Source: a virus
Lineage: Duplodnaviria; Caudoviricetes
Direction: 5' to 3' (one strand)
Virus record (IMG/VR): IMGVR_UViG_3300025087_000689
DNA length: 64,000 nt
Shown: piece by piece, positions 3,393 to 62,811 of the stretch
Position numbering within the stretch: the stretch's first letter is position 1
Layout of the letters: each line of letters starts with the position of its first letter
Notes under the pieces: generated by a model
Database searches by the model: none
The model's input: the letters and a program-made list of their open reading frames with translations, nothing else
Told to the model about the DNA's origin: nothing
Translations under genes and position numbers: made by a program

Positions 3393-3850
3393 AATGGTAA
3401 CTCCAATATGAAATCTTTTGGATGTTCAGAAATATCATCTAATAATCCTAATTGTTCTATCATGGATATAATTTCATTGAGAACATAATTTCTATCTTTG
3501 AATGTATCAAGTCTACCCATACTCAAATTAATATTTCGATTTCCTGGTAACTTGAAATATTCTGGATCTTGTAAATCTCCCAAATGTGCACAATCAAAAC
3601 CAATCCATTTACCTTCGGGTAAAAGTATAGTGCATCTTTCTAGATCTTTATTTTCATATGTAATTCCACCATGAACATCGAGACTATTGCTTTCTTCTTG
3701 GAAATTAATATTGTATTTTTGATGATACCATGGTATAAATACATAACCACATAGAAAACCTATTTTATTATCTTTAATGCAGTAGAGATAGTTTTTTATA
3801 GTATTAAATTCTAACATTAGAACAACTCCAACTGGGGATTTATTTTCCAA
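3389..3850 (-). CDS. Conserved phage hypothetical protein
   Basis: VHGGITY..WIGFDCAHLGD motif typical of a phage DUF; true start probably downstream. Confidence 0.7.
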   Translation of the reverse strand: MENKSPVGVVLMLEFNTIKNYLYCIKDNKIGFLCGYVFIPWYHQKYNINFQEESNSLDVHGGITYENKDLERCTILLPEGKWIGFDCAHLGDLQDPEYFKLPGNRNINLSMGRLDTFKDRNYVLNEIISMIEQLGLLDDISEHPKDFILELPL

Positions 3851-6800
3851 TCGAAGATAGCAAATAACTTATCTATCTGTTCTAGATAGTATCTTTCATC
3901 AAGTTGATCAGCTGAGTCTACGTATTGTGATATAGTATAGTAGTGATCCTTCTTGCCTTTGTTTTCTTTCAGAGCTTCCTGTAATGCCTTACATGGTGGT
4001 GCTTTCTTAGTAACAAAGTAATCAACTTGAAGACCATCTTCAACTTTAGTCTTCAATCTTTCTTCAACCTGTAGTCCTACTACTCTTTGAAGGGACATAC
4101 CATTCTTGTAACCTTTAAGATCTTTGCTGAAGGTCACTCTAAATTTAAAGGCACTTAAAGGATATTGTTTGAGGTTTTTTAGTTTAGTTGCTGTTAATAA
4201 ATGATCAGTGACACTCTGATCAAGAGTCATCTGACAAACAGTATCAAGTATAGTGTCACAGACTCCGGCTTGTTTAGAAGATTTAAAAGCAACTCCATGT
4301 TTCTCAATAACAGTCTTACCCTTCTTGATCTTACGGATGGCATAGTTTTTCATACGGTAAAAATAACCATCAATGATCTCATCCTTATCAAGAGCCATAT
4401 AAGAAGTAACACCTTGGTTATCCTTAATGTGTTCAGCTATCTGTTTATTGATATTATCAATATCAACATCTTTATCAACTATCATACCATCTGTGTCAGT
4501 TCCTACAACACTTTCTCCTAGTAAACTTAAAGTAAATCTAGTGGTCCATCTACACATTCCTGTTATAGCTATAGCAGTAGCCATGTCTCCGTATGAAGTA
4601 AAAGTTGAACCTAACATTCCGAAAATACTGTTCATAACAACTTTTATAGCTATTTGCCGACTATCGTAAGCATCTGTTTCAGCTTTTGTTTTAGCTTCCT
4701 TAAGAAGTTGTTTTAATCTTGTTCGTTCGTTTGATAGTTTTTCTATCTCTTCTTTTAAGAAACCGATTTTGGACATGTCAATTGTTATTTCTATATTTTT
4801 ATTGAAATTTTGATCCGGTATATCTAAAATCATGAACTTGCTCTTGCGGTAGAAACTATACTTCCCAGTAAGTTCTTTAAGACCTGTAATTCTAGTTGTG
4901 TCTGGACCGAGATTCCAAGTTCGGATTGCGGAAGGATAATAAGAACTAAAATCCACTTTATATAAATTCTTTATATATCCAAATTTATGTGCTTCGACAA
5001 TAGCACCCTCAAATCTAGAACCAAGTGTATATATTCTTCCAGGTTCTATTTCACCTGTTGAATTTCCGTCCTCATCTTCTCTATTGTTTCCATATCTTTC
5101 TTTATTAGAATCTAATGGTATAAGATTTAATCGTTTACAATGACGAGCACATATAATCTTTGGAATGAAAGATGGAAAACAACCCACGATAGAACCAAGA
5201 GGAACCTGCATTAATTCAGCTAATGCTATAGCATTGGGTAAGTATACATCAGAAACCACCTTAGTAGCATTAACATCTGAAGTTAGGTACTCCCTTAGTT
5301 GTGGTGTTCCGATGAGTGCTTGTGTGTTTTCCACATCGTCTCCCAAAGATAAGGCTTGGAATCCATACCATGCTGAGACTGATTTGAGTCCTTTACTTTT
5401 TATTCCGCTGTTTCCACACCAAACAGGATAACCATTACGTCTAACTAGAATAATCTGATTAGGAACTGTACAACAATAGACTTTACCTTTATAATCTATC
5501 CAACTATCAGTTGGAATTCTACTGTTGATAGTTGGTGTTGTTTGTTTTTTTATTATCATTACTCTATAGATAAAAAACGTCTTATTATTTAAGGTGTTAG
5601 AATCTAAATGGATAGATGAAGCAAAACCTAATTTTATAATTATTTCCTGGACATCATTAGCAAGTTGTTTTGACACTGTAGAATATAATGTTGTTATGGG
5701 ATAATTATTTTTTATTTTATCTTTTGTACCATCACCTAACATTAAAGCTTTAAACAATATATCTAAAAGGTTCTTGTTTAAATTTAATAGATCTCTTGGA
5801 ATAAATTTATCGTGTGCTTTTCCAAATTGTATTAAGTATGATACGAGTTGTTTACTTTTAAAGTTAATATTTCCGTTTTTATTAATTTTATTAAAATAAT
5901 AATTGGATTTGAATCCAAGGTTATGAATACAAGCTCTGATTTTTTTGACGTTGTCAGGTGTTTTATTACTTTGAGCTATATTTATATTGTATAGTCCAAA
6001 TTCTTTATTAATATAACAAGAACCCTCAGAGATATAATAACCTAAAAACTCTAACCATATTTCTAACTTAAATTCGTTATTCTTCTTGAAATTAAATTCC
6101 ATTTTTTTTCTATGTATTTCAGGAAGCTGAAAAGACTTTTTATCTATTCCAATCCAATTACCTACAGATCTTTTGACTTTATATTTCTTATTGATTAATT
6201 CATCTGGTTTTTTAAATTCCCATATTTCTTCGTTATTATATCTTTTATCTTTTGGAAATTTTATAAAGAGGTCATGTGTTTTGGTTACTAATAAATCTAC
6301 AGATTTATTGTTGATCTTATACATTTTATTATCGTAGTTATAAGATGTATGTTCTATAGGTAACTGATACTCTAAAGTATCAGTATGTTCATTTAAAGTA
6401 GCTACTTTTTCACTTTCATTAATATCTTTGAATAATTTCCATCCAGTTTCACATAAAATTTCCGTCTGATCATCATAACACATAGATTGGTCTTTGCGTG
6501 CAGGTATTATACAGTCCAGATGCACTCGACCATTAAACTCAATACTGTCTTGACCTTCTTTGTAACGAAATTTGCCATATCTTCCTAACTGATCTAAGTC
6601 TATTCCATACTTCAACATCCTCTGGACTATATAAGGCAAGTCAAAGTTATGTCCATTATAAGTTACGATAACATCAGGATTAATTTGTCCATAATAACTA
6701 AGAAAGTCCAGAAGTAATTGGCTATCATTGCCTCTGGTGTAGTTGTCAAAAATCTGTACAGGGTTATCATTGTGTTTACATCCTATCGCTATGACGGGCG

Positions 6801-7200
6801 ATGTTTGAGGTCGCGGAAAGATACCATTCCCTTTAGTTAGTACTTCTATATCGAGGTACAACACATCTAATGGTTGTGTATTAGGAAATTGAAGTGGGTA
6901 GTCTGGTAAGTCTACAAAGAGTTGTTCTGTATAAGGTAACTTACAAAACAACTTACCTTCCATTTGTAACTGTTTAGCCTTCTCATCGTTGATCTGAACT
7001 GTCTCAGCTTCCATTTTGAACATGGTAGTCTCGACATTATCTGGCAGACGAATGGCTTTTATGTCTGTGGATTTTAGATGATGATTAGGCTTCTCAGCTA
7101 TAAGATATGGTTTGAATGGTAGAGGTCTCCTAATGATCTCTTTATTCACAGTAACAATAAGATTCTCACCGTAAGCATTGAATAGAAGAGGTACTCTCAT
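3817..7200 (-). CDS. polB: Family B DNA polymerase with intein
   Basis: ExoI YLDIE, ExoII YNGHNFD, ExoIII YLTSD; VDFSSYYPS, KVVMNSIFG, GTDTDG. Confidence 0.93.
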   Translation of the reverse strand: MRVPLLFNAYGENLIVTVNKEIIRRPLPFKPYLIAEKPNHHLKSTDIKAIRLPDNVETTMFKMEAETVQINDEKAKQLQMEGKLFCKLPYTEQLFVDLPDYPLQFPNTQPLDVLYLDIEVLTKGNGIFPRPQTSPVIAIGCKHNDNPVQIFDNYTRGNDSQLLLDFLSYYGQINPDVIVTYNGHNFDLPYIVQRMLKYGIDLDQLGRYGKFRYKEGQDSIEFNGRVHLDCIIPARKDQSMCYDDQTEILCETGWKLFKDINESEKVATLNEHTDTLEYQLPIEHTSYNYDNKMYKINNKSVDLLVTKTHDLFIKFPKDKRYNNEEIWEFKKPDELINKKYKVKRSVGNWIGIDKKSFQLPEIHRKKMEFNFKKNNEFKLEIWLEFLGYYISEGSCYINKEFGLYNINIAQSNKTPDNVKKIRACIHNLGFKSNYYFNKINKNGNINFKSKQLVSYLIQFGKAHDKFIPRDLLNLNKNLLDILFKALMLGDGTKDKIKNNYPITTLYSTVSKQLANDVQEIIIKLGFASSIHLDSNTLNNKTFFIYRVMIIKKQTTPTINSRIPTDSWIDYKGKVYCCTVPNQIILVRRNGYPVWCGNSGIKSKGLKSVSAWYGFQALSLGDDVENTQALIGTPQLREYLTSDVNATKVVSDVYLPNAIALAELMQVPLGSIVGCFPSFIPKIICARHCKRLNLIPLDSNKERYGNNREDEDGNSTGEIEPGRIYTLGSRFEGAIVEAHKFGYIKNLYKVDFSSYYPSAIRTWNLGPDTTRITGLKELTGKYSFYRKSKFMILDIPDQNFNKNIEITIDMSKIGFLKEEIEKLSNERTRLKQLLKEAKTKAETDAYDSRQIAIKVVMNSIFGMLGSTFTSYGDMATAIAITGMCRWTTRFTLSLLGESVVGTDTDGMIVDKDVDIDNINKQIAEHIKDNQGVTSYMALDKDEIIDGYFYRMKNYAIRKIKKGKTVIEKHGVAFKSSKQAGVCDTILDTVCQMTLDQSVTDHLLTATKLKNLKQYPLSAFKFRVTFSKDLKGYKNGMSLQRVVGLQVEERLKTKVEDGLQVDYFVTKKAPPCKALQEALKENKGKKDHYYTISQYVDSADQLDERYYLEQIDKLFAIFDWKINPQLELF
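5410..6480 (-). mobile_element. Intein (357 aa, LAGLIDADG-type) in the PolB exonuclease domain
   Basis: CYDDQTEIL..FLGYYISEGS..ALMLGDG..VWCGN|S. Confidence 0.9.
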
Positions 7201-8800: not shown

Positions 8801-10333
8801 TTAAATATCTAATAACTTATAAACTTGTCTACCTTCACTATGTTCATCACATAATGTTCTTATCCATCCACCTGCTCGAAGGATACCAGGTTTACCACAC
8901 TGTTCGCAGGTTACTTCTGACTTAGCTTCGCCTTCGTTGATGATGTTATATACTATATCTATGTCTTCTTTGCTCGTACCAGCAGCAAAATCAACATAAT
9001 ATCTTAAAGAATTACCACAAAAGTAATGTTTACCTTCTCTTCTAACTAAAAGAATATTTTCTGGCACTGATACGCAATATACCATATCATCGTAATCAAT
9101 CCATTCTTCTCTATATGATTGAGATGAGTTTTCCTGATATTTTTTCTTATTCATTGTATTATGAAAGTTAGTTTTTGTCATCCAATTAATAGCATACGAT
9201 GTATGTTTACCATTAATTATAATATCTTTTCCTTTATGTGTAGAAGGTGGTATTTCTTTATATATAGTTGATGAATTGCCACACTTAATAATTAGTTCTT
9301 GAACGTTATTAATTAATGTTTTACTAGTTGAATATAGCATATTAGCTGTTTTAGCTTTATGTCCATCTCCTAAATATAATTCAGTTAAAAAATAATTTAT
9401 TAATTCAGATGTTAAATGTTTTATAAATTCTGGAACTTTTTTATTTGGTGCTAAATGACCACAATTTTCTTTAAGCCAAGTTCCTAAAATAGTATTATAT
9501 ATTCGTATAATACCACCCTTACAAAGCTTATGTTTTAATTCTAGCTTATCTAATATTGATTCTACTCTTAAAATTTCTTTTGTATTTTTGTAATTTAAAC
9601 ATAAACTAATATTATTTTTATGATAGTGACCTTCTGCTATGTACCAGCCTAGTAATTGTAAGAATGGAATGATATTATAAATTTGATGGTTATATTCGTA
9701 GGTTCTTTTTACCTTCCTATTTATAGAATCGGTATAGTTATCAGTTCTTGTGTGTCCTTCAATACGATAACATTCAATAGATTTACCAGACCATGTACTA
9801 GTTTTCTTAAATCTTTTATTTTTCTTGAAATATTTTTCTGGAACGCATAACTCAAAAGGATAATCTCTTTTAATAACATTTCCTTTAATTTTGCCATTAT
9901 AATAACTACCTTTAGCACAGTATAGATTATGATTAGGTGTTACACAAAGGTTAACTTGTTTAGTATTTAAAAAATACATTAATCCTTTGTATTTATACTG
10001 TATCATATCCGACGGAATAACAAATTTTAATTCATCTTGATTAGATAATGAAGCAACCATATCTGTTGATTTTAAATCTTTAAAAAATTTCCATCCATTG
10101 TTAGTTAAGATTTCCGTTTTCTTATCATAACAACCAAATTTTTCTTTCACTTGGACTACAGTAACCTTAGTACTTGTGGCTGTTATGCGTTCACATATCT
10201 TCTTAATAAGAGCGAACCATCCATCATCTGGAAAGCCATAGCACATTAAACTGACTTGGTTACTAACATTCTTCCCATTAGGAAATAGATTAGGAAAAGT
10301 TGTGAATAAATAATCTTCTTTTTCTTTAGTCAT
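8801..10333 (-). CDS. Small conserved phage protein (136-aa extein, QVKEKFG-SLR..CEQCG..TLC) with intein
   Basis: Removing the intein gives DDGWFALI..QVKEKFG|SLRYY..TCEQCGKPG..GWIRTLCDEH. Confidence 0.85.
   Translation of the reverse strand: MTKEKEDYLFTTFPNLFPNGKNVSNQVSLMCYGFPDDGWFALIKKICERITATSTKVTVVQVKEKFGCYDKKTEILTNNGWKFFKDLKSTDMVASLSNQDELKFVIPSDMIQYKYKGLMYFLNTKQVNLCVTPNHNLYCAKGSYYNGKIKGNVIKRDYPFELCVPEKYFKKNKRFKKTSTWSGKSIECYRIEGHTRTDNYTDSINRKVKRTYEYNHQIYNIIPFLQLLGWYIAEGHYHKNNISLCLNYKNTKEILRVESILDKLELKHKLCKGGIIRIYNTILGTWLKENCGHLAPNKKVPEFIKHLTSELINYFLTELYLGDGHKAKTANMLYSTSKTLINNVQELIIKCGNSSTIYKEIPPSTHKGKDIIINGKHTSYAINWMTKTNFHNTMNKKKYQENSSQSYREEWIDYDDMVYCVSVPENILLVRREGKHYFCGNSLRYYVDFAAGTSKEDIDIVYNIINEGEAKSEVTCEQCGKPGILRAGGWIRTLCDEHSEGRQVYKLLDI
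9011..10132 (-). mobile_element. Intein (374 aa, LAGLIDADG-type)
   Basis: CYDKKTEILT..LLGWYIAEG..ELYLGDG..YFCGN|S. Confidence 0.9.
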
Positions 10334-12516: not shown

Positions 12517-12533
12517 AAGAACCATTTACATTA

Positions 12534-12946
12534 TGGAGACGGTGGGTCTTGCACCCACGTCCAAGATACATCTGTCATTCAATGAATTAACTTCGTATTC
12601 AGTTTTAAGTTCTGACAAACTAGGGGCGAGCGAGTTACCGCCTGCCCTCCACCACTAGTTTTTAAGGACTAGAAACCCGTTGCACTTATTTTAAAGAGTA
12701 GCATCACACTCCGTTTTGTTACTTTATGTTGCCAGGTTGTAACCACCCCGCTTGGTCTCGGCTGTTAAGCGTAGACAGATTCAGTGACGGTTTCGACCGT
12801 GAAGTCTTCTCCGTCCATGAAACAAGCGAACTTAGAATTGTTAGATTCGTCTGTTCTGTTTTGATGGATAGTTTTAAAAGGCCAACCATCATCCTTTGAA
12901 GCCATTGAAATCCGTCAGTTACTTGTCGAAACTAAATTACGTCCCC
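12534..12946 (-). ncRNA. ssrA: tmRNA (413 nt); tag frame 12851-12765 = (A)DESNNSKFACFMDGEDFTVETVTESVYA*
   Basis: 5' GGGGACG..GTTTCGAC; 3' GTGGG-TGCAAGA-CCCAC-CGTCTCC-A; G3-U70 alanine determinant; internal ORF ends GCT TAA. Resume codon is inferred. Confidence 0.92.
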
Positions 12947-28578: not shown

Positions 28579-31500
28579 TCAGACACTAACGTTTTTACAA
28601 TCCAACTTTTTATATTTAACATTTTTCTTTCCTACGTAAGAGATTAAGAACTTATCCTCATATTTCACTATTGCATCTGACTTTAACTTTCCGTTGTTGT
28701 CTATGATCTCATCTGTAAGTAGATCCTCAATTTTGTCACGAATGAGACGTCTCATCGGTCTAGCGTTTGAGTTTTTCTCTTCAGCTACAAGATCCAATAT
28801 CTTTTCCTTTGCCGAAGAGTCTACAGTGACCTTAATATTAAAATTCTTTTCAATATTTCGACTTATCTCAAAAAATTGAAGATTAAATATTAAAGATAGG
28901 TCTTCTCGTTTTAACGGATCAAAAATAACTGTATTTCCAATACGGTTAAGAAATTCAGGTCGAAAGAAGTTTTTTAATTCTGCATGAATAGTTGTATGAA
29001 TATTAGTCTTTTTTTCTTCAAAATTCTTATGAATGAAACCGAAGTTATTCTTCGTAATATCTTGAGAACCTATGTTTGAAGTCATAATAATGATGGTGTT
29101 TTCAAGACTTACTGAACGATTTAGCTTATCTGTAATTCTTCCATCATCCATCATCTGAAGGAAAATATCGTAAACGCTAGGATGAGCTTTCTCAACTTCG
29201 TCGAAGAGTAATACGCAATAAGGATTATCTTTAAGTGCGTTAATAAGTTCACCGCCCTCCTCGTATCCAATATAGCCAGGAGGTGAATTATGAACACCTA
29301 CAAAATTCGCAATATAAGTTGATTCATTAGCAATTGTTAAATCATATACGTATCCGTCGTATTTAACTTTCTTTTTTTGATTGATGTGATAATAATAAAA
29401 CAGGTGATCTTTATATTGTTTTCTCTGAATATTGAAAACTTTAGTTACTTTAGTTTTTAATTTTAATGATGGAAGCTTAGTATTTAGTAGTTCAGCATTA
29501 TCACCAGTAATAATTATTTTATATACCTTTTCATTTTGTAGATAATTGAATTGTGTAGAAAATCCAAGTTGACGAAGGATAGTATTAAATTGAGATGCTA
29601 AATCTGAAGAAACAGTTGTATATGTTATCTTTTGTTCTATTGTTTTGGAACCATCTCCAATAATAAGTGTTTCTATTAGATTATACAATTTGACTGGATT
29701 ACATCCAAGAATATAACTTGGAATTTTTTTCTCATAACATGTTCTTCCAAACAATTTAGAAAGCATAATATTTATAATTCTACTTGAAAATACTAAACAA
29801 ATTGAATTTCTATTTGTATGTCGTATATTAATGTGAATATGTTTTCCGAATATTTTGTGTATAAGTAGTTTTGTTTCTTGAACGTATTTTTCTTCGTGTT
29901 TGCCAAATGTTATTTTTATATTTTTCCGATTTTTAGAACATCCACCTTCACTTAAGTAATAACCTATAAATCGGAGGAATGTATTATTTATTTTAATAAA
30001 TCTATTAAATTTTACGTTTTGATAAGCCCAGATATTCTTATTATCATATTGATATCGAGGTAAGTCTACTATATAATCTTTCAAATCGATTACAGGTAAA
30101 TTTGTATCAAGACTTAGTATTTTTGGATATACTATTATATCATTTTCATCTATATCCTGACTATTTCTAAACTTAATGTTTTTTATAGAATAAGAAGATT
30201 TTTTAACTCTTTTATTGTAAAACTCAGGTTTAATACATGGTATTTCATGTTTTGACGTACAATTTAATCGTAAATTGCTATTTGCTATTCTATATGAGTC
30301 GAGTAATCCAGTATATTTATACTTATGGGTGTGTGTTACATTCTGAATTTTTCCGGTATGTGAAAATACTTTATCTCCGATCCGAACTTCTGAAATCGAT
30401 TTCATAGTTCCGTCTGCCATAAGTATTTTAGTTTTAGGAACAAAACATCCCAAAAGTCTCGAGACTGTAAACTGATCACTATACTCTGACATATCAAATC
30501 GACGAATATGTTTTTCACTGCCGAATAAACCCAAAGCTAATTGTTTAGCAAGATGAGTTTTACCTACTCCTGTAGGTCCTAAGAATAGGAATGAACCAAT
30601 AGGTTGTCCTGACTTTCGCAAGCCAACTTGAGATCTTCTAATAGCTTTAACAACAGATGTTATAGCGTCAGTTTGTGATATTAGATGATATCTTAAGAAC
30701 TCTTCTAGTTTCTTTAGTTTAGTAATGTTATCAGCTGAAAGTTCAGCTATGGGAATCTTAGTTATGCGAGAAACTGTATTTGTAATATCATGGATTGAAA
30801 GTTCAAGTCCTCTCACTTCAGAAACTAGACGAGCTCTTTTTACTTCAAGTTCATGTTCGAGATTCTTTCTATCATCCATTACTCCTGCAGCATCTATGAT
30901 ATGATCTTCATTCATATGAATAGAAATATCTTCTTCGAGAGCCTTAATCTTTTCTTCGAGAATTTTTATTTCTGGGTTGTTGGCGATAGAAGAGATTTTC
31001 TTATCTCCGCAAGCTTGGTCAAGTATATCAATTGCCTTATCAGGAAGTGCTCCACCGTGGATGTAGCGTACAGCAAGGACCACAATATCGTGGATAAGAT
31101 TCTTGTTAACATGTATGCCATGATGTTCCTCGTATTTTTTACAAATACCATTAAGAATTTTAATAGCTTCTTCTTCTGTTGGTTCAGACACTTTAATCCG
31201 TTGAAATCTACGTTCTAATGCACCGTCTTTTTCAAACACCTCCCGTTCTTCTTTAGTCGTAGTTGCACCAATAACCTGAATCTTACCTTTTGATAGGTAA
31301 GGTTTTAAGATGTTAGCTGCATCATTTCCATGAGATGAATCACCTGTACCAATCATAGTATGAATTTCATCTATGAATAAGATAATATTTTTGGCGGAAA
31401 GAACCTCTTTAATTATAAACTGCATTCTTTCTTCAAAATCTCCACGAAACTTAGTTCCAGCTACAAGAGAAGCGAGATCAAGAGCGACTACTCTTTTACC

Positions 31501-32151
31501 TCTTAACATCTCTGGAACTTGTTCATTGGTAATAGACTGAGCTAAACCCTCGACAATAGCCGTTTTGCCAACACCAGGATCACCAACAAGTAAAGCATTT
31601 CTCTTGATGCGTCGACAAAGAGCGTTGATCAGAGATCTTAGTTCTACTTCTCTACCAATCACAGGATCTAAACCACCTTGTTTAGCTTCCTGAGTTAGAT
31701 CAGTACTGTATTTGTCCAGTGTTGGTGTTTGAACCGATTCATTATTCTTTCTATCTGGTGGTTTTGATAGAGTTATAAAGAGTCTATCTGTTGCAATCCC
31801 AAGATCTTGCAGATATGTTATTCCATCCTGTTCTGACATACAATAGTTGAGAATCGTCATTGGAGTAAATAACGTAGATTGCGTTCGAAGACGTACACGT
31901 TCTTCAACTATTTTCATTTCTTTTGAGAAACTCTCAGGACGAATAATTCGCTTATCTTTTAGTCTTATGATAGAAGGATGTGTGGTGAATTCTAATTCAT
32001 CGCCGCATTCTACAAGAAGATTGTAGGCTGTCGATGATCCATCGAAGATAATAGCTTGAATTAGATGTGTAATATTAAGAACTTCATCAAATTCATTGGA
32101 AATGAATTGAGCAGTCTCAAATATTATTCTGGTTCTAGCTGTACGTACCAA
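28579..32151 (-). CDS. ClpA/B/C-family AAA+ chaperone with intein
   Basis: LDPVIGR, GDPGVGKT, GTKFRGDFEER, GPTGVGKT, DMSEY..RLLG|SPPGYIGY, FRPEFLNR. Confidence 0.93.
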   Translation of the reverse strand: MVRTARTRIIFETAQFISNEFDEVLNITHLIQAIIFDGSSTAYNLLVECGDELEFTTHPSIIRLKDKRIIRPESFSKEMKIVEERVRLRTQSTLFTPMTILNYCMSEQDGITYLQDLGIATDRLFITLSKPPDRKNNESVQTPTLDKYSTDLTQEAKQGGLDPVIGREVELRSLINALCRRIKRNALLVGDPGVGKTAIVEGLAQSITNEQVPEMLRGKRVVALDLASLVAGTKFRGDFEERMQFIIKEVLSAKNIILFIDEIHTMIGTGDSSHGNDAANILKPYLSKGKIQVIGATTTKEEREVFEKDGALERRFQRIKVSEPTEEEAIKILNGICKKYEEHHGIHVNKNLIHDIVVLAVRYIHGGALPDKAIDILDQACGDKKISSIANNPEIKILEEKIKALEEDISIHMNEDHIIDAAGVMDDRKNLEHELEVKRARLVSEVRGLELSIHDITNTVSRITKIPIAELSADNITKLKKLEEFLRYHLISQTDAITSVVKAIRRSQVGLRKSGQPIGSFLFLGPTGVGKTHLAKQLALGLFGSEKHIRRFDMSEYSDQFTVSRLLGCFVPKTKILMADGTMKSISEVRIGDKVFSHTGKIQNVTHTHKYKYTGLLDSYRIANSNLRLNCTSKHEIPCIKPEFYNKRVKKSSYSIKNIKFRNSQDIDENDIIVYPKILSLDTNLPVIDLKDYIVDLPRYQYDNKNIWAYQNVKFNRFIKINNTFLRFIGYYLSEGGCSKNRKNIKITFGKHEEKYVQETKLLIHKIFGKHIHINIRHTNRNSICLVFSSRIINIMLSKLFGRTCYEKKIPSYILGCNPVKLYNLIETLIIGDGSKTIEQKITYTTVSSDLASQFNTILRQLGFSTQFNYLQNEKVYKIIITGDNAELLNTKLPSLKLKTKVTKVFNIQRKQYKDHLFYYYHINQKKKVKYDGYVYDLTIANESTYIANFVGVHNSPPGYIGYEEGGELINALKDNPYCVLLFDEVEKAHPSVYDIFLQMMDDGRITDKLNRSVSLENTIIIMTSNIGSQDITKNNFGFIHKNFEEKKTNIHTTIHAELKNFFRPEFLNRIGNTVIFDPLKREDLSLIFNLQFFEISRNIEKNFNIKVTVDSSAKEKILDLVAEEKNSNARPMRRLIRDKIEDLLTDEIIDNNGKLKSDAIVKYEDKFLISYVGKKNVKYKKLDCKNVSV
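29287..30447 (-). mobile_element. Intein (387 aa, LAGLIDADG-type) in Clp AAA2, within RLLG|SPPGY
   Basis: CFVPKTKILMADG..FIGYYLSEG..LIIGDG..FVGVHN|S. Confidence 0.92.
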
Positions 32152-43218: not shown

Positions 43219-43253
43219 AAACTTCTCGTAGATTTATAATCTACGAGAAGTTT
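43219..43253. terminator. Perfect 16-bp inverted repeat at the ligase stop codon
   Basis: aaacttctcgtagatt-tat-aatctacgagaagttt. Confidence 0.6.
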
Positions 43254-44346
43254 ATTCGTAATCTCTAATTTCTATTAAAACTGGAAATCTTGGTATACCT
43301 TCATTAGTTTTTTGTTGAAATCTAATTATGGCTTTTTTTCCCACTAATTCTTGTAAATTTTGAAACCATTCTTTTCGCTGTTGACGGGATCCTTTTGGCC
43401 TTGCTTCAAATTCTTTGCCTTCTTTGGTAATAAGTTGGAATACGATTGTACCTTTATCATTTCCGGTTGCTTCTTTGCCACCTATAATTTCAAATTCATC
43501 GTCATCAAAATTCTTCCACTTTTGGAGATTTTTTGAACGGTGTTTGAATTCGTATTCACCTTCTTTATTTCTTATCATTATTCCTTCGTATCCATCTTGA
43601 ACAAATTGTTCATGATACTTAATGATCTCAGCTTCATTCTTGACTTCATATGTTGGAACACGAACTAAATACTGAGGATTTTCCATTTTATCGAAAAATT
43701 CTTTTATAAGTCTTGTTCTAGTTTCAAAAGGAAGACCTTCATTTGCCAAATCATAAATATAATATTTAAGTCTGAAAGGTTCTCTTGTTTTCTTAACAGC
43801 TGCAACTATATCCTGAAAAGATATTTCATTATGACAATATACTTCGCCGTCTAAAGGTGATTGTACTTCAGCTTCAAAGATTGAACATTCTTCATCAAAT
43901 TGATCAAGAGTAGTAAAAGGTTTACCGCCACGAGAATTAAAGGTGTGATCTGTATAGATGCAACGCACTCCGTTAAACTTTGGCTGCACGTAGCAAGGAA
44001 ACTTAATATCATGTTTACGTTCAATATACTTAAGAGCAAGCATAGGAAGCAGTAACTTCTGTGTCTTCTGAGCCTTCTTAGTCTCGGTATATCCTTCATC
44101 CTTCTTCTTATTCCACTTAGATTGAGCATCAGATACGGCTTGATCAAATGGAGTTGTTTCATTTTTCTTGCCGATATTCAAACCAACAGTAATCTCTCTG
44201 TGATTAACTGCTTGTTTCTTACCTTCAAGACCGTGTTCCATGGTAATAAGAACATCTTTAGCACGTTCATCTACGCGTATATTAATAAGTTTAGTGCGAC
44301 CTGTTGAACCTGTACCATAAAGTGTTGGAAAGATTTTACTTTTCAT
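43252..44346 (-). CDS. ATP-dependent DNA ligase with N-terminal extension
   Basis: PMLA, QPKFNG, DGEVY, EGIMIR, HRS..LQKWK, PRFP. Confidence 0.92.
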   Translation of the reverse strand: MKSKIFPTLYGTGSTGRTKLINIRVDERAKDVLITMEHGLEGKKQAVNHREITVGLNIGKKNETTPFDQAVSDAQSKWNKKKDEGYTETKKAQKTQKLLLPMLALKYIERKHDIKFPCYVQPKFNGVRCIYTDHTFNSRGGKPFTTLDQFDEECSIFEAEVQSPLDGEVYCHNEISFQDIVAAVKKTREPFRLKYYIYDLANEGLPFETRTRLIKEFFDKMENPQYLVRVPTYEVKNEAEIIKYHEQFVQDGYEGIMIRNKEGEYEFKHRSKNLQKWKNFDDDEFEIIGGKEATGNDKGTIVFQLITKEGKEFEARPKGSRQQRKEWFQNLQELVGKKAIIRFQQKTNEGIPRFPVLIEIRDYE

Positions 44347-53590: not shown

Positions 53591-54472
53591 CTAGTTTTCT
53601 AGTAAAATATCTCCTTCTTTCAAATCTTCTACTTTGCGATAACAGTAAGAATTTGGTAAATATATCTTATGATTACCTGTAACTTTTATGATTTTACCAT
53701 TTTTTGTGGTGATTTCATACCATTCGTGTTTATTTTCATTTATAAAAGTATTTTTAATTCTAGTTAATTGTATTTTATTAGTTGTAGGATTTACACCAAA
53801 TACTTTACCTTTATATTTAGTGTCGCAAATTTCTTTTATTGTTTTTAGTCCTTTATCTGTGTGAAGTATTGTATTTTCATCAAGACAACCATCAATTTTA
53901 GTTGTAACATACCACTTTTTATCTGAGTTAAGATGAGGTTCAAGATCACGGAAGATAGCTTGTACCCTTGTTTCATCTGTATGAGGAATGCAAGAAGGCC
54001 AACCTTTATCCTTCTTTCTGAAGATAAGAGGTCGTATCTTACGATATAACTTGAACTTACAAAGAAAATGATCAATCGGATGTTGTCTTTTAGCAGTAGG
54101 TGAACATTCACCAGCTTCATCTGTATCGATCTTAGTTACACCTATGATGTCTGTTACATCCATTCCCTCAATAGGGTCTACGATTGCAGGAAAGTCCTTT
54201 AAAGGCATGATAAGACCTTGTGATGTCACACCACGCATTTTCAAAGTTTTGACCTTGTAATGCCTTTTTTCCATAAAGGAGAAGGCTGGAATTATAGGTA
54301 ATCTTGAATCGATCTCAAAATAGATCACAAGATCCCCGGTTTTAATACCGTTATCTATAGCTGTTATACATTTCCATCCATTACCATGCATACTAGCTAA
54401 GACTATTTTATCTGCACCAGGAATAACTTCAAGTGAACTGATTTTTTGTATTGATGCTAGCTGACGAGTCAT
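53591..54472 (-). CDS. Split RNA ligase (Rnl2/DRB0094-like), N-part plus IntN (98 aa, 53594-53887)
   Basis: RQLASIQKI..GAD..YFEIDS..KMRG..SQGL..TDETRVQ..TTKIDG|CLDENT..TGNHKIY..GD. Confidence 0.92.
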   Translation of the reverse strand: MTRQLASIQKISSLEVIPGADKIVLASMHGNGWKCITAIDNGIKTGDLVIYFEIDSRLPIIPAFSFMEKRHYKVKTLKMRGVTSQGLIMPLKDFPAIVDPIEGMDVTDIIGVTKIDTDEAGECSPTAKRQHPIDHFLCKFKLYRKIRPLIFRKKDKGWPSCIPHTDETRVQAIFRDLEPHLNSDKKWYVTTKIDGCLDENTILHTDKGLKTIKEICDTKYKGKVFGVNPTTNKIQLTRIKNTFINENKHEWYEITTKNGKIIKVTGNHKIYLPNSYCYRKVEDLKEGDILLEN

Positions 54473-55269: not shown

Positions 55270-55317
55270 ATATTATAGTTTATATTCAAACTATTATGTC
55301 AAAGAACTCTAATTTAA

Positions 55318-55389
55318 TCCGACTGCAGGAACTTGCATCCTGTTATTAGGTCCCACAAACCTATGCATTACTATATATGCTACAGAAGG
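55318..55389 (-). tRNA. Degenerate tRNA-His(GUG)
   Basis: TAGGT-TTGTGGG-ACCTA; two acceptor mismatches, D-loop lacks GG, T-loop TGCAAGT. Confidence 0.55.
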
Positions 55390-56798
55390 GATGAATGCTT
55401 CTAACTACACTATCAATACCATATTATATCATATCTAAAATATTAATGTTTTTTGGAACACTATGTTTATGAGATATCTTTGTATGAATGTGATACACTT
55501 TTCCTTCAATCTCGTCTTCAGCTGGCATATCATAGAATTTTCCAGTAAAATTGATCTTAAATGGATCATCATAGGGTATATTCGTACCAGATATACATAC
55601 TGGAAAAGTCTCACTATTTGCTAATTTATAGTAGACATGTTTTATAAACTGTCCGTGTGCGTCACGTCCATTAATTATTTCAACAATGGAATTACGCTTA
55701 AGATGCTCCATGAATTCATTAGTATTCATAGATCAATGGATCTCATTGTTTGTACCGTTAAGCATATTGTACTCCAAACGAATGTTAGAAATCAAGTGGA
55801 ATTAGAGGTTCTGGGTTCTTATGTTCCCACAATTCTGACGGTCTTTTGATCTTAATAATCTGTTTTTTCTGGATAATACAACCATCTCTTATAAGTGGAT
55901 CCACTAACTTGTACGCATCAGCTATGCATTCCTCACATTCTTCACACAAGTTATCATAGTTAGTACATGAAGCAAATTTAACTGATTCACCAATTTCATA
56001 TACACTCATATTACGATTTAACGTTTATCTGACTTCGTAAAAGTAACTGACATAGAAATGTTAAACACCAAGCCATTCTCCATGTTATCTTTGGAAAGCC
56101 AAAGACAGTTGGAATAACAAAATTCCAACATAACATGACAAGAACTGCAATTAGGCAGCTAATAATAGCTGCTATTACTAGTCCAATTAGAACTAGTACA
56201 GTTGTAGAAACGATTGTTGTGAGATTCATTCTCCTTGAAAAGTAATTCATTCATTATTAGTCTAGAAAAACATCAAATCTCTTTTCGGACTTGTTGAGAA
56301 ATTCTATTTTTCCATTATTAATTTTATAAGGAGACAGTCTGACGTCTCGATTACCATCCTTATCATATATTGCTATGACAATAAAGTTATCGTCGCTATC
56401 TAGAACAGGAGTTGTCATAACAAATACTATAAATGAAGCACCTGTTTCGTGTCCTTTGTTAACTAAAGATTGTACGACTCCAGATTCTGGTATAATTCCT
56501 TGTAGCTTCACATACTATGCACCTATTCACATCTCCACATCCAGTAATGGATACAAAATCTCCTTCTCTCATAGTATTGGTATAATTCCATGTGGTGGAT
56601 CATATGTATATAGGTCAATTTGTTTAGGGTGAAGAAATACTTGTGTTGTCGTTACTTGGTTTTGTGTTATACCCTTTATTGTGTCGTATCTCCAGCCGGA
56701 AAGATCATAGTTTCCTGATCTTTTACATTCTTCTTTTGGGCAAGAGCTACATTCTGGATAAGCCCAACAACCTTTGAAACGTATTTTATCTCTAATAT

Positions 56799-59165: not shown

Positions 59166-60452
59166 TTAAGTTAATACTTTTGGATATTTTTTCAAAGACT
59201 TTGCATCTTTGTTCCAAACACAAACGTCTCCTTGTTGATACCAGTCTTCTCCATCTTTTGATACCGGTATACTTTTCATAGCTTGGGGTTTTCTGCTATT
59301 CAATGCCTTCTCCACAGTATCGCAGTCTGGTGGAACGCCTTCAATATGATATATTCCAATGCTAGGATTCAACATTTTTAAATAAGGTCTGCTTCTATCA
59401 CCAAGATTAAGATTCAAAAGTTCATAATTACCAATTTTATCTAAAATAGTTGCTCCTAAATCCTTACAGACTTTTTCTATACCTATTTTCCTTACTATTT
59501 CCCTTCTTATTTCTACATTGGTTTCCTTAAGGATAATATTTGAGTCTAATTTGTCCCAAGCAGTCATAACCAAGTCTTTAGGAACACTAACTCCATTAAG
59601 ATTATATATAGAATACCCATCACTGTATTCTACAGAAGGACCATTTTCACAATGAAGAACATTTCCTTTAAACTTCAAAGTCTTAGGCTTCTGGGAAAGA
59701 AATACAATATCCTTAAATATAAACATATAATGAACATATTCATGTACCTTTTTGAATATTTCCCATCCTTGCATATTATCTATTTTCTGGACTTCACTTA
59801 TCAAATAGTCATAAAAAGAGCAATATCCACTAAAAATATTACCATTCGTACCAAAATATCCTAATAAATAATATTCTAACTTAAGACTGCGAAGCTGACT
59901 GTCAAGCTGACTGTAAAGCTGACTGTCAAGCTGACTGTCAAGCTGACTGTAAAGCTGACTGTAAAGCTGACTGCGAAGCTGACTGTAAAGCTGACTGTAA
60001 AGCTGACTGCGAAGCTGACTGCGAAGCTGACTGTCAAGCTGACTGTCAAGCTGACTGTAAAGCTGACTGTAAAGCTGACTGTAAAGCTGACTGTCAAGCT
60101 GACTGTAAAGCTGACTGTAAAGCTGACTGTAAAGCTGACTGTAAAGCTGACTGTAAAGCTGACTGTCAAGCTGACTGTCAAGCTGACTGTAAAGCTGACT
60201 GTCGATTTTCAAATTCTTAAAGACTGCTTTTACTATATTAATTCCTATATTACAGGCAAAAGGGGAATCTAAAATTATGAATAGTTTTGGTTCAATATTT
60301 AAATACATTTTTAAATAAGGAAGTAAAACTTCTTTAGCCTTATCTAATTCAATAGGATTATATTCTAATCCTATTTTAGTCCACTTATCTATATAAAAAG
60401 GTATTTTGGATTCTTGCATTGGCGTTAGCTTTGTAATCATATAACCTTTCAT
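59166..60452 (-). CDS. DUF6745-like protein with a (Y/D/R)SQL tandem-repeat tract
   Basis: LHCENGPSVEYSDG..NGVSVP..ETNVEIRR. Confidence 0.8.
   Translation of the reverse strand: MKGYMITKLTPMQESKIPFYIDKWTKIGLEYNPIELDKAKEVLLPYLKMYLNIEPKLFIILDSPFACNIGINIVKAVFKNLKIDSQLYSQLDSQLDSQLYSQLYSQLYSQLYSQLYSQLDSQLYSQLYSQLYSQLDSQLDSQLRSQLRSQLYSQLYSQLRSQLYSQLYSQLDSQLDSQLYSQLDSQLRSLKLEYYLLGYFGTNGNIFSGYCSFYDYLISEVQKIDNMQGWEIFKKVHEYVHYMFIFKDIVFLSQKPKTLKFKGNVLHCENGPSVEYSDGYSIYNLNGVSVPKDLVMTAWDKLDSNIILKETNVEIRREIVRKIGIEKVCKDLGATILDKIGNYELLNLNLGDRSRPYLKMLNPSIGIYHIEGVPPDCDTVEKALNSRKPQAMKSIPVSKDGEDWYQQGDVCVWNKDAKSLKKYPKVLT
59892..60203 (-). repeat. 26 x 12-bp in-frame tandem repeat (TAC/GAC/CGC-AGT-CAG-CTT)
   Basis: Read directly; only the first codon varies. 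Confidence 0.97.
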
Positions 60453-60470
60453 GAATTAAAATCATAAATA

Positions 60471-60648
60471 GAGCGTGCTGTTACGCTAAAGGGAAAGGAG
60501 CTTCACCTACTATCCGCAGTCGAACCTAATCACGCTTATTTTCAAAGCTATCGACCAACTCAATAAGACGTTCGTAGAATTTACTACGACAAGGATTTCG
60601 GTGCTTCGTCCCACTCATTAAGGATGGCTGCTTCTAAGCCAACCACTC
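60471..60648 (-). ncRNA. Candidate ncRNA mimicking the 23S rRNA GTPase-associated centre (H42-H44)
   Basis: GAGTG-GTTGGCTTAGAAGCAGCCATCC-TTAATGA-[~120 nt]-AGCGTAACAGC-A-CGCTC. Confidence 0.75.
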
Positions 60649-60658
60649 AATCCAAAAC

Positions 60659-60832
60659 TTATTTTTCGGCTATAATAGAAGATGATATCTCATTTGGTTT
60701 CTTACCATAATTCTTCTCGACAAATTCAAAGGCTGTCTTGTTCACGTCAGAACAGAACTTCTCATCAGCAGTGAACTTACCTTTGATGTTAGTCTTGTCG
60801 ATCTTACCAATGTACTCGATTTGCTTTAACAT
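60659..60832 (-). CDS. Small hypothetical protein (57 aa, not in the ORF track)
   Basis: GGAGG SD, MLKQIEYIGKIDKTNIKG.. Confidence 0.6.
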   Translation of the reverse strand: MLKQIEYIGKIDKTNIKGKFTADEKFCSDVNKTAFEFVEKNYGKKPNEISSSIIAEK

Positions 60833-60841
60833 ATTGTCCTC

Positions 60842-61141
60842 CTAATGTCCATACCTATTATATATGGGTTGTTGAGTTGGTATTGTTCGCGAATTTAAAA
60901 GACTATCAAGTGTATGAACTAGTCGTATTTGACAGTATTTGCAGTTACCCTTGTGAACAAGGAATTGTATTTCTGAGAAACTAGCTGGACCAATGTACTC
61001 ACAACCTTCTATCTCAAATATCCAAAGATTTTGGGTATTATCGCAGTTTGTCACTTGTTCTTCAAGTTTGTAAGACTTGATTAGCTCATGATCAGCTGCA
61101 CAGACTAAGATGCATAGTAACAGAATGATTCTAATCATCAT
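60842..61141 (-). CDS. Secreted/signal-peptide hypothetical protein
   Basis: IEGCEYI..HKGNCKYC. Confidence 0.65.
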   Translation of the reverse strand: MMIRIILLLCILVCAADHELIKSYKLEEQVTNCDNTQNLWIFEIEGCEYIGPASFSEIQFLVHKGNCKYCQIRLVHTLDSLLNSRTIPTQQPIYNRYGH

Positions 61142-62811
61142 TGTTCTCCTAATAGTTCAAGTATTGGACCTTCGGATTTTTCAAAATGTACTGAATCGAA
61201 CACTGGTCCGTGGATGCTACCACTATCCGTTATGTGGTGTCCTTTAATCTTGATAATTGAATCATTATTAATGACTTCATCAATGTTTTTAGCAAACCAC
61301 TTACGCTCATAGTCGGTGAATCCAGATCCAACATCTGTGTTACCAAGACCATCTATCTTACAGTGTAATGCACCAATCCTGGTCTTATCGATTTTACTAG
61401 ACTTGGTTTCTAGTGGTTCCCATCCCACGATTTTACAATCATAGAAGTCAGTCTTCTTGATTTTCCACCATGCTTGTGCTTCAGGATTAAACTGTGGATC
61501 AGGAGTTACTTCATCAAGAAGTTTTATTACTAGACCTTCACCCCTACGTTTTTCGACCACAGCCTTCCATCCATTTCTAACCGAGTCAAACTGCTCGGGA
61601 ACATACACGTAAGTATGGTTGTCAGCGATCTTTGCCATGATTTTATGCTTCTCACGGTAGGTAAGAGATTTGGCCGATCTGCCATTAACCTTTGCAAGAT
61701 CATAAATAACGATGGCTGATTGCCCTTTCTGAATTTGTTGTTCTGAACGAGAACGCAGTGGATTTGATATGAGTGAGAATTTGGCCAATAGATGTGGATG
61801 CTCAAATCCGTAGTCTTTAAATACTTGCCCACGCGTAATTCTGCGTCCAGGAACATAGATGAGTTCACCCCGAGCAATCGTCCCGTGAAATTCTGAGTGG
61901 ATATCATCTCTAATGTCTGGGAACTTATCTTGGAGAAATATTGTACTTTCACGTTTGCCTTCTCTCCACGAGTAGATTTGGTTACCACTTTTGTCGAATC
62001 TGATGAGATTGGCTGCACCATCGATTTTTGCCTCGATAATATAGGCTTGGTTATTTTCCTTAAGTTTCTTTTCGAGATCAAATGCTTTAGGTGGGACATC
62101 TCTTCCCGTGGTACCAGCAATGAGTTTAAACTTGTTCTTACCTTTGATTTGCGGCTCATCATATTTCCTTCGAGAACAGATCCAATTACCTTTTGAATCC
62201 TTTGGATCTATAAGGGCAAAACGACCAGTGATACTCCTGTTTGTGTCAGTTTTATAGATATTGAATAAAATTTCGCCTTTCGAATGGGTTTTGAGTAATT
62301 CAATATCTTCATTGAAGACAACCGTTTGAGTACCTCTACCGTATCCTTCCTGGATAATACCTGACCAGTTGTATCCATATTTACCTTTTGAATGTTGAGG
62401 TTGACGAGCGAATGATGTGCGAACTACATCTCCCTGAGGGAATAGTCTTTCTATTTCTCCTTTGGATACAGCTCCACGAAAGATCTCTATGCCATCTGCA
62501 TCTACAATAGATATGTCATGATGAAGATGTAATGCTTCGTGTCGTTGAATATATAATTTACCAACTCTTGATTTTTTGTTCTCAGGTATTTTATTGAAAT
62601 TATTAAGACGTATTGCTGGTTTATACCTATCTCGTATGAACCGACGAGTACGAGATTTTAACCATGGTTCGACAAAGGTGCTGAATAACTCAGCACCAAT
62701 GTCTACCATAGTGAGAACAACCGCAATCTTCTTACCCATGTGAACAAACAGCTGCTGTTGCTGCGGCAAGTTCAATTGCACGCGGATGAGCAGCCGTTGT
62801 TTCAATCTCAT
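61138..62811 (-). CDS. ATP-dependent ligase with N-terminal LigD phosphoesterase-like domain (true start probably ~62740)
   Basis: QRHEALHLHHD; EAKIDG, RGEL, YDL, EGLVIK, WKIK, VGSGFTD. Confidence 0.82.
   Translation of the reverse strand: MRLKQRLLIRVQLNLPQQQQLFVHMGKKIAVVLTMVDIGAELFSTFVEPWLKSRTRRFIRDRYKPAIRLNNFNKIPENKKSRVGKLYIQRHEALHLHHDISIVDADGIEIFRGAVSKGEIERLFPQGDVVRTSFARQPQHSKGKYGYNWSGIIQEGYGRGTQTVVFNEDIELLKTHSKGEILFNIYKTDTNRSITGRFALIDPKDSKGNWICSRRKYDEPQIKGKNKFKLIAGTTGRDVPPKAFDLEKKLKENNQAYIIEAKIDGAANLIRFDKSGNQIYSWREGKRESTIFLQDKFPDIRDDIHSEFHGTIARGELIYVPGRRITRGQVFKDYGFEHPHLLAKFSLISNPLRSRSEQQIQKGQSAIVIYDLAKVNGRSAKSLTYREKHKIMAKIADNHTYVYVPEQFDSVRNGWKAVVEKRRGEGLVIKLLDEVTPDPQFNPEAQAWWKIKKTDFYDCKIVGWEPLETKSSKIDKTRIGALHCKIDGLGNTDVGSGFTDYERKWFAKNIDEVINNDSIIKIKGHHITDSGSIHGPVFDSVHFEKSEGPILELLGEQ

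Follow-up and report, generated by a model that had tools for sequence, protein, structure and literature searches.

A stand-alone phage RNA with a core resembling the GTPase-associated centre of 23S rRNA

Results

A structured RNA between two protein genes of a phage replication module

The window analysed here is a 64,000-nt stretch of DNA from a large phage detected in groundwater and soil metagenomes. Its genes form a replication module, with an intein-bearing ribonucleotide reductase, a family B DNA polymerase, a UvrD helicase, a RecA-like protein, a ClpB-like ATPase and two ligase-like genes. Scattered through this module are 15-17 tRNAs and a tmRNA, every one of them encoded, like the RNA described below, on the minus strand. 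Several genes carry intein/LAGLIDADG insertions, and the two ligase-like genes resemble ATP-dependent DNA ligases; the larger has a 240-aa N-terminal extension and a weak RNA-ligase match (Table 1).

The element lies between protein genes, with the nearest tRNA 5.2 kb away. The TAA stop codon of the upstream 57-aa ORF (60659-60661, minus strand) abuts it, and the downstream 428-aa ORF has an ATG at 60452 or 60440. The sequence-only reading had placed the element next to a repeat-protein gene, which agrees with the tandem repeat in the 428-aa ORF, a 12-nt unit present about 26 times (94% matches) and encoding a tetrapeptide. The same ORF has a match to DUF6745. The window copy could simply be part of an mRNA.

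Table 1. Positions of the GAC-like RNA, its parts and other features of the window
Feature	Position	Strand	Remarks
Whole GAC-like RNA	60460-60659	minus	fills the gap between the 57-aa ORF and the 428-aa ORF
Closing helix, 5' strand, AGUUUUGGAUUGAGU	60645-60659	minus	H42-like; last U pairs with G1103
H43 mimic	60623-60644	minus	G1058, then 21 nt identical to E. coli 1059-1079
C1080 and UUAAU turn (1082-1086 equivalent)	60617-60622	minus	subclass without the 1057:1081 pair
GAGU (G1087 A1088 G1089 U1090)	60613-60616	minus	proximal H44; near-invariant in the family
Insert, 122 nt	60491-60612	minus	between U1090 and the conserved UUU linker
Insert base stem GGGA/UCCC	60609-60612 with 60491-60494	minus	base-stem pairs covary in the family
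C-GAA facing GGAUAGUA	60605-60608 facing 60508-60515	minus	AGUA/GAA bulged-G-like loop
Insert helix GCA/UGC	60602-60604 with 60516-60518	minus	covaries among relatives
Distal insert domain, 83 nt	60519-60601	minus	fold is a prediction alone
13-nt 3' bulge in insert	60495-60507	minus	
UUU linker and distal H44 AGC-GUAACA-GCAC	60475-60490	minus	AGC-GUAACA-GCAC itself at 60475-60487
Closing helix, 3' strand, GCUCUAUUUAUGAUU	60460-60474	minus	pairs with 60645-60659
Tandem repeat within the 428-aa ORF	59892-60202		
ATP-dependent DNA-ligase-like genes	43252-44346; 61138-62811	minus	
Second weak match to the family model	55271-55426	minus	15.4 bits, rough E ~5e-4
tRNA-His-like gene	55318-55389	minus	Rfam 40 bits, no ARAGORN call
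Phage tmRNA	12531-12946	minus	Rfam 57 bits
Intein/LAGLIDADG insertions	1-2682; 3817-7200; 8801-10333; 28579-32151; 53591-54472	minus	hosts: ribonucleotide reductase, family B DNA polymerase, ClpB-like ATPase, PHA02142 OB-fold protein, 510-aa ORF

The core reproduces sequence elements of the 23S GTPase-associated centre

On the minus strand, positions 60623-60643 read GTTGGCTTAGAAGCAGCCATC, which is identical at 21/21 positions to nucleotides 1059-1079 of E. coli rrlH (taken from NC_000913.3), as the sequence-only reading had noticed for H43 and its A1067 loop. An exact 21-mer shared with a 2.9-kb rRNA is expected by chance about 1e-4 times in 64 kb on both strands, and a search with 16-mers allowing up to 3 mismatches matched the window at this H43 site only. 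The hairpin includes the 1065-1073 loop, with the equivalent of A1067 at 60635, and the U1060/U1061 internal loop, with U1060 at 60642. The resemblance of TTAATGA to the 1082-1088 junction also stands, with CUUAAU at the place of C1080 and the 1082-1086 turn, followed by GAGU for 1087-1090; here the equivalent of A1088 (60615) would be the tertiary partner of U1060. The H44 loop proposed to contain A1095 is likewise there, as a G1093-A1098 hexaloop (A1095 at 60482) closed by G1091:C1100 and C1092:G1099 and followed by A1101 and C1102. The bases of the tertiary contacts (U1060-A1088, and G1071 and C1072 with H44 pairs) are all found in the window sequence. DNA reads from four runs placed on the element showed zero variants.

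No rRNA surrounds the element. Rfam 15 at the gathering threshold gave no rRNA match anywhere in the 64-kb window and no family at the element; at E<=10, the interval 60350-60750 matched no LSU or leader family, and its sole hit was a chance match to snoU49 (16 bits, E 1.7). Comparison with Rfam by cmscan therefore leaves no family that fits, GOLLD, ROOL and LSU included. The minimum free energy of the element region is no better than that of shuffled sequences (z = 0.26), and the unconstrained fold mispairs H43. With no signal from thermodynamic folding, the support for the structure is comparative.

A long closing helix and an insert that splits H44

The domain is closed by a helix of about 15 pairs with two U-U mismatches, in which 12/14 flank positions are paired, plus a U:G. 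The pairing that had been read as GAGTG/CGCTC is there, but it is better described as GAGU/GCUC, with the next G (60644) pairing with C1080 (60622). Because the helix extends to about 15 pairs, the RNA measures about 200 nt, not the 178 nt first assigned to it.

The expansion of about 120 nt noted within H44 is an insert of 122 nt. Since it sits between U1090 and the UUU linker, H44 becomes a three-way junction. Above its base stem, a C-GAA strand faces a strand with an AGUA motif; the AGUA/GAA signature tentatively resembles a bulged-G (loop E) motif with four extra nucleotides on the 3' side. The module GAA...GCA/UGC...GGAWAGUR is common to the window, Pseudomonas phages pf16 and UNO-G1W1, loci L245, L246, L116 and L123, and others, and its proximal helix appears among relatives as GCA:UGC, GCA:UGU, GUA:UGC, ACG:CGU and GCG:CGC. 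The distal 83 nt have no detectable relatives, which leaves the three-way fold predicted for them unsupported. The window insert shows no similarity to the rest of E. coli 23S. Across the family, inserts compared with other parts of 23S gave short matches at chance level, with L054 and L111, which carry sarcin-ricin-like hairpins, as the exceptions.

The element belongs to a widespread phage RNA family

A blastn search of GenBank phages found the same 43 nt in pf16 and UNO-G1W1, where the copies occupy unannotated gaps within tRNA arrays, lie on the tRNA strand and have the same overall architecture. Searching viral databases for the H43 sequence, a step that the sequence-only reading had named as a check, gave at least 120 IMG/VR loci for the 15-mer GCTTAGAAGCAGCCA; about 80% of those listed have the GAC-like design and are not rRNA, as judged by eye and then by model. 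The family model gave 81 matches in 100 IMG/VR loci. A 3' motif, TTGGCGTAANAGCACAC, searched in one genome per prokaryotic species, added 29 true copies among the 120 matches listed; the other 91 of these 120 have no upstream H43 motif and are most likely chance matches of the 16-base pattern. The family totals more than 100 copies in IMG/VR viral contigs, together with copies in cultured phages and in bacterial assemblies, among them a Saccharibacteria MAG. Besides pf16 and UNO-G1W1, cultured carriers include Milchi, Astolliot, Aeromonas 4_4572, Xanthomonas XacN1, XbC2, Pd_22F, Cronobacter GAP32, Pectobacterium CBB, Serratia BF, Erwinia pEa_SNUABM phages and one Vibrio phage. Searches of INPHARED and IMG/VR with two flanking proteins found no close relatives of the window phage.

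The family consensus begins with the closing helix and GG(R)-NN-GUNGGCUUAGAAGCAGCCAYC-NN-UUAAA-GAGU, continues with an insert of 41-479 nt, and ends with UUUGGC-GUAAYA-GCACAC and the other strand of the closing helix. The window copy carries this signature: GAGU, a paired insert base, UUU(G/A)GC-GUAAYA-GCAC, A1101 and the closing helix. At 1090' it has A in place of G, as do 7/98 members.

Insertions occur at two fixed points, after A1077 in H43 and after U1090 in H44. We take both points to adjoin bases that are bulged or flipped out in solved structures, so the core fold could survive the inserts. Some members have the second insert, in the H43 3' strand, and in these it might hinder uL11 binding. 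Several modules recur in the inserts: GYGCGAAAUGY in 15/116 copies, ACCCC-hairpin-GGUAAGG in 24/116 and the AGUA/GAA loop in 12-16/116. Sarcin-ricin-like hairpins (GCAUAGUACGGGAGGAAAUGC; CUAGUACGAAAGGAG) are present in 2/116 members, L054 and L111, both of them long, and absent from the window copy. None of the 116 members has a tRNA nested within it. Two GAC-like elements in viral contigs have no H44 insert, L019:3703-3782 (+) and L089:4345-4423 (-). The first is about 75 nt long and lies 296 nt from a tRNA-Ser; the second may be genuine rRNA. The existence of an insert-free copy such as L019 makes the core alone seem sufficient.

Covariation supports the structure across the family

Pairs were counted in the 98 members that share the standard register, with shuffled partners as the control. 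The eight closing-helix pairs were paired in 78-99% of members versus 39-90% after shuffling (about 40% for the six outer pairs), with up to four Watson-Crick types per position. At the base of H43, 1057:1081 was paired in 97% versus 72% (A:U, C:G) and 1058:1080 in 99% versus 41% (U:A, G:C, A:U, C:G). The 1082:1086 pair reached 93% versus 65% (U:A, C:G, A:U). Insert-base pairs 1-4 were paired in 100, 99, 91 and 70% of members, versus 36-56% in the shuffles (45-56% for the first three), with four types in the first three. G1087:C1102 and U1090:A1101 were paired in 95-96 of the 98. Every helix of the family that varies in sequence covaries. The sequence-only reading had suggested covariation as a check, and it is present in the closing helix, the H43 base, 1082:1086 and the insert base stem.

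In an alignment of 26 sequences (A1; MAFFT, with the structure specified by hand), 91% of the cells were paired versus 68% in shuffles. Its covariation score was 0.559, against 0.145 for shuffled alignments (0/500 reached 0.559) and 0.10-0.16 with slid partners. When the 5' and 3' flanks of different members were mixed, contiguous closing pairs fell from 7.4 to 2.1. R1, a covariance model derived from A1 and free of the window sequence, matched the window with 72.6 bits (E ~1e-24) over 60459-60660, the full model length. The true E. coli GAC scored 50.5 bits with the same model, and other members scored 24-124 bits.

The family also has features of its own. The GAGU-insert-UUUGGC arrangement and the A1101:U1090 pair are absent from rRNA and present in the family whatever the host. 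The pf16 and UNO-G1W1 copies differ from E. coli 23S at 1058:1080 and 1061, positions at which their Pseudomonas hosts presumably have the E. coli-type sequence. Such family-specific, host-independent features point to a single evolving lineage, as opposed to host rDNA captured time after time. Taken together, it is very probable that the window element is a structured RNA of a phage family with a GAC-like core. The proposal of a stand-alone, conserved GAC mimic is thereby upheld, by a covarying family with its own signature and a model score for the window above that of real 23S.

The window copy represents a recurrent junction variant

The window copy lacks both partners of 1057:1081. Its turn is UUAAU, with U-U at 1082:1086, and its closing helix abuts C1102. 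Position 1056:1103 is U:G, whereas the standard class usually has a purine-A mismatch there. A pattern search recovered the window's junction design in 13 unrelated contigs, 12 of them viral and one from a bacterial assembly. Among the junction-variant members (n=13), 1058:1080 alternates between G:C and A:U, and 1056:1103 is U:G, C:G or U:A in 8/13. The nearest architectures to the window are L245 and L246; L245 abuts a tRNA, and its G1091:C1100 is replaced by A:U, a compensatory change. Far from being decayed, the window copy is a variant that recurs. With 1057:1081 missing and U-U at 1082:1086, its tertiary fold may differ from that of the canonical domain.

Conservation of the loops suggests selection on the functional face

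The IMG/VR set had been chosen by an H43 15-mer, so each loop was scored in copies found by the opposite end. Of the 29 copies located by their 3' motif, 13 have an exact H43 loop; A1067 is kept in 24/29 and is G in 5/29, and A1070 is G in 5/29. Changes in the H43 stem of this set are compensatory (G1063A with C1075U; G1062A with C1076U). In the copies found by the 5' motif and aligned to the model, the H44 loop shows G1093 in 64/64, U1094 in 63/64, A1095 in 61/64 and A1098 in 64/64, and A1101 in 69/70. The replacement of A1067 and A1070 by G in 5/29 each means that the constraint is looser than in rRNA.

A1067 and A1095 are exposed bases that serve factors, thiostrepton and GAC-modifying enzymes, and not folding. 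The retention of A1095, and mostly of A1067, suggests that selection acts on the functional face of the GAC mimic and not solely on the surface for the uL11 C-terminal domain. The closing helix retains just two H42 G-C pairs, and the H42 sequence beyond them is unconserved. As H42 is largely unconserved, the uL10 site was probably not copied in the family.

Family members usually accompany tRNA genes

In the fetched loci, 484 tRNAs lie on the element's strand and 1 on the opposite strand. A tRNA lies within 100 nt of the element in 39/82 copies, many of them at 0-10 nt on both sides; the fetched locus contains no tRNA for 24/82 members, whose setting is like that of the window copy. Other neighbours include tmRNA, ROOL and GOLLD. 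No protein family recurs as a neighbour in these loci, the biggest cluster comprising 6 loci.

Possible further copies in the window phage

R1 also gave a second weak match in the window (Table 1). Its H43-like part reads GUGUAG--UUAGAAGCAUUCAUC, without the inner stem pairs and without the UUAAAGAGU junction. Its H44-like part, CUUUGAC-AUAAUA-GU, has an A:U compensatory pair, and UAUGGU/ACUAUA is a possible closing helix. At the position of the insert it has a nested tRNA-like gene, and the whole abuts a tRNA-Pro. We read this match either as a second copy that has decayed or as the product of chance. The nested gene is tRNA-His-like, with anticodon GUG (read by eye) and an atypical T-loop, UGCAAGU.

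Run X1 of the window's sample contains another contig, of 3044 nt, that matches 60606-60646 and has the same depth (68.5 versus 66.4). Its H43-like 41-mer (2 differences) is set among other flanking sequence, a GCGCAAAAUGUC module included. The contig may belong to the same phage and encode another GAC-like RNA, beyond the limits of the window.

Discussion

The most likely role of the RNA is that of a mimic of the GAC acting in trans, a decoy competing with ribosomes for a ligand of that site. We put the probability of this reading at roughly one half. The RNA would be co-transcribed with its neighbouring genes; in most relatives it would be part of tRNA-array transcripts, from which tRNA-processing enzymes would trim it. 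It is predicted to fold like the 58-nt uL11-binding domain and, as a decoy, would draw the ligand of the GAC away from ribosomes. One candidate ligand is host uL11, an exchangeable protein needed for RelA activation; its capture would weaken signalling that depends on RelA and uL11. Other candidates are translational GTPases and a toxin or antibiotic directed at the GAC. With about 10^4 ribosomes per cell, stoichiometry is a general difficulty for any RNA sponge.

Several published observations bear on these steps. Isolated from the ribosome, the 58-nt domain adopts its fold and is bound by the C-terminal domain of uL11 (PMC1802607). Tre23, a bacterial ADP-ribosyltransferase toxin, modifies H44 at 1095-1098 and blocks EF-G (PMC8661411). 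Phages are also known to carry bL12 stalk domains (PMC6375957). Among five complete genomes of phages with family members, none has a uL11 gene and one has a bL12-like motif. Phage UNO-G1W1 has both a GAC-like RNA and a 195-aa ORF (L253:1132-1719, +) with the bL12 C-terminal motif KVAMIKEVRHATGLGLKESKELV (PF00542, 36 bits); by eye, the ORF also has a release-factor-type peptidyl-tRNA hydrolase-like domain with GAGGM instead of GGQ.

A broader proposal, which we advance tentatively and at somewhat less than even odds, is that large phages rich in tRNA genes produce their own free-standing RNA version of the ribosomal factor-binding site, comprising the GAC core and in some cases a sarcin-ricin-like hairpin. 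Such an RNA might capture uL11 or translational GTPases, and so silence RelA-type signalling, or might capture an immune or competitor toxin that acts on H43/H44. On this proposal the RNAs would form a new class of viral counter-measure, 'ribosome-part decoys', encoded beside decoy tRNAs.

The RNA may instead be the scaffold or adaptor of a ribonucleoprotein, in which the GAC core recruits uL11, the stalk or a GTPase, or merely stabilises the fold, and the insert carries the activity, for example by acting as an aptamer or ribozyme or by docking a second protein. It would then be a two-part machine, not a passive sponge. The modular and recurrent character of the inserts (GYGCGAAAUGY, ACCCC-hairpin-GGUAAGG, the AGUA/GAA loop and the sarcin-ricin-like hairpins), the two fixed insertion points and the wide range of insert lengths fit such a role. 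However, no insert module is universal, the minimal copy L019 has no insert, and the distal domain of the window copy has no detectable relatives, so that no specific activity is supported. On this balance a scaffold is unlikely.

We consider it quite unlikely that the RNA is a processing or stability element of polycistronic phage transcripts and tRNA arrays, with a compact, nuclease-resistant fold borrowed from rRNA and no ribosomal ligand. An element of this kind could mark cleavage sites, insulate adjacent tRNAs or protect transcript ends. The many copies 0-10 nt from tRNAs on both sides, the arbitrary sequence of the closing helix and the exact fit of the window copy to its intergenic gap are all in keeping with it. 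Such a role nevertheless leaves unexplained why unpaired loop bases of H43 and H44, A1095 included, are near-invariant, and why sequence identical to rRNA is retained in phages of unrelated hosts. Most phage tRNA junctions, moreover, have no such element.

The sequence-only reading had also raised the possibility of a cis-leader that couples the downstream gene to ribosomal-protein levels. In such a leader, bound uL11 (or uL10-bL12) would control translation or termination of that gene, which here encodes the 428-aa DUF6745 protein. The element does lie 8-20 nt upstream of the start codons of this ORF, the H44 hairpin, with a U-rich tract after it, was picked out as a weak terminator-like structure, and ribosomal-protein leaders that mimic rRNA are of a known kind. 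But the usual neighbours in the family are tRNAs and no downstream gene is conserved, the structure leaves free the likely ribosome-binding site, AAAGG in front of the second ATG, and no Rfam leader matches. A cis-leader is disfavoured by these observations and appears very unlikely.

A non-functional piece of host 23S rDNA captured by recombination is scarcely credible, since, for all the 21/21 identity with E. coli H43, compensatory changes run throughout the family, features foreign to rRNA mark it, R1 gives the window 22 bits more than real 23S, the insert is unlike the rest of 23S, and the pf16 and UNO-G1W1 copies depart from the E. coli sequence at 1058:1080 and 1061; covariation and the family signature contradict a captured, non-conserved fragment.

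If these RNAs do bind uL11, GTPases or GAC-targeting toxins as the decoy reading holds, they would give the first known case of viral genes reproducing a functional rRNA domain as a separate molecule. The family is found in phages of both Gram-negative and Gram-positive hosts, jumbo phages included, and its occurrence in cultured phages makes the idea directly testable. It also provides natural variants of the best-studied rRNA tertiary domain, which tolerate insertions at two points and include an alternative junction; studies of RNA folding and of uL11 and thiostrepton recognition could make use of them. In addition, the family exposes a gap in RNA family databases.

The closest known counterpart is the bacterial 23S GAC itself (end of H42, H43 and H44; E. 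coli 1051-1108), the 58-nt domain that binds uL11 and thiostrepton. The window has the identical H43 sequence 1059-1079, and the phage RNA shares the GUAAYA H44 loop with A1095, A1088, U1060, the UAA turn and an H42-like closing helix; 1058:1080 and 1082:1086 covary in rRNA and in the phage family alike. In contrast to the ribosomal domain, the phage element is a stand-alone gene with no LSU rRNA around it. The rRNA H44 is a continuous short hairpin (1087-1102), whereas the phage H44 is split by an insert of 41-479 nt and a UUU linker, and the phage family has A1101 pairing with U1090. The window subclass departs further, with no 1057:1081, U-U at 1082:1086 and U:G at 1056:1103.

Ribosomal-protein leaders, such as the rplJ/L10 leader (RF00557), offer a likeness in principle, as extra-ribosomal RNAs that imitate the 23S stalk base to bind a ribosomal protein. 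Such leaders belong to cells, regulate in cis and resemble rRNA only loosely, whereas the phage RNA has loops nearly identical to those of rRNA, tRNAs as its usual neighbours and no fixed gene attached to it. At E<=10, no Rfam leader family matched 60350-60750. ROOL and GOLLD are likewise large structured RNAs found beside phage tRNA genes, and they share contigs with family members L109 and L116. They differ in having no sequence or model match to the GAC-like RNA, and to our knowledge neither imitates rRNA.

No described Rfam family overlaps the element in 7 other family loci, and no description of such an RNA was found in the open-access full-text literature, a scope that leaves out most subscription journals. 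The phage GAC-like RNA family is therefore apparently undescribed.

Phage decoy tRNAs are the nearest functional analogy. A viral tRNA-Lys neutralises PARIS, a tRNA-cleaving defence (PMC11464382), and the GAC-like RNA is, like such tRNAs, a stable translation-related RNA found in the same arrays and on the same strand. By this analogy, the GAC-like RNA is plausibly a countermeasure to attacks on the translation apparatus. The two differ in that a tRNA works alone, while an isolated rRNA domain cannot translate and can therefore act only by binding something. If the analogy is correct, the logic of phage tRNA arrays, in which attacked parts of the translation machinery are replaced or shielded, would extend to the ribosome itself.
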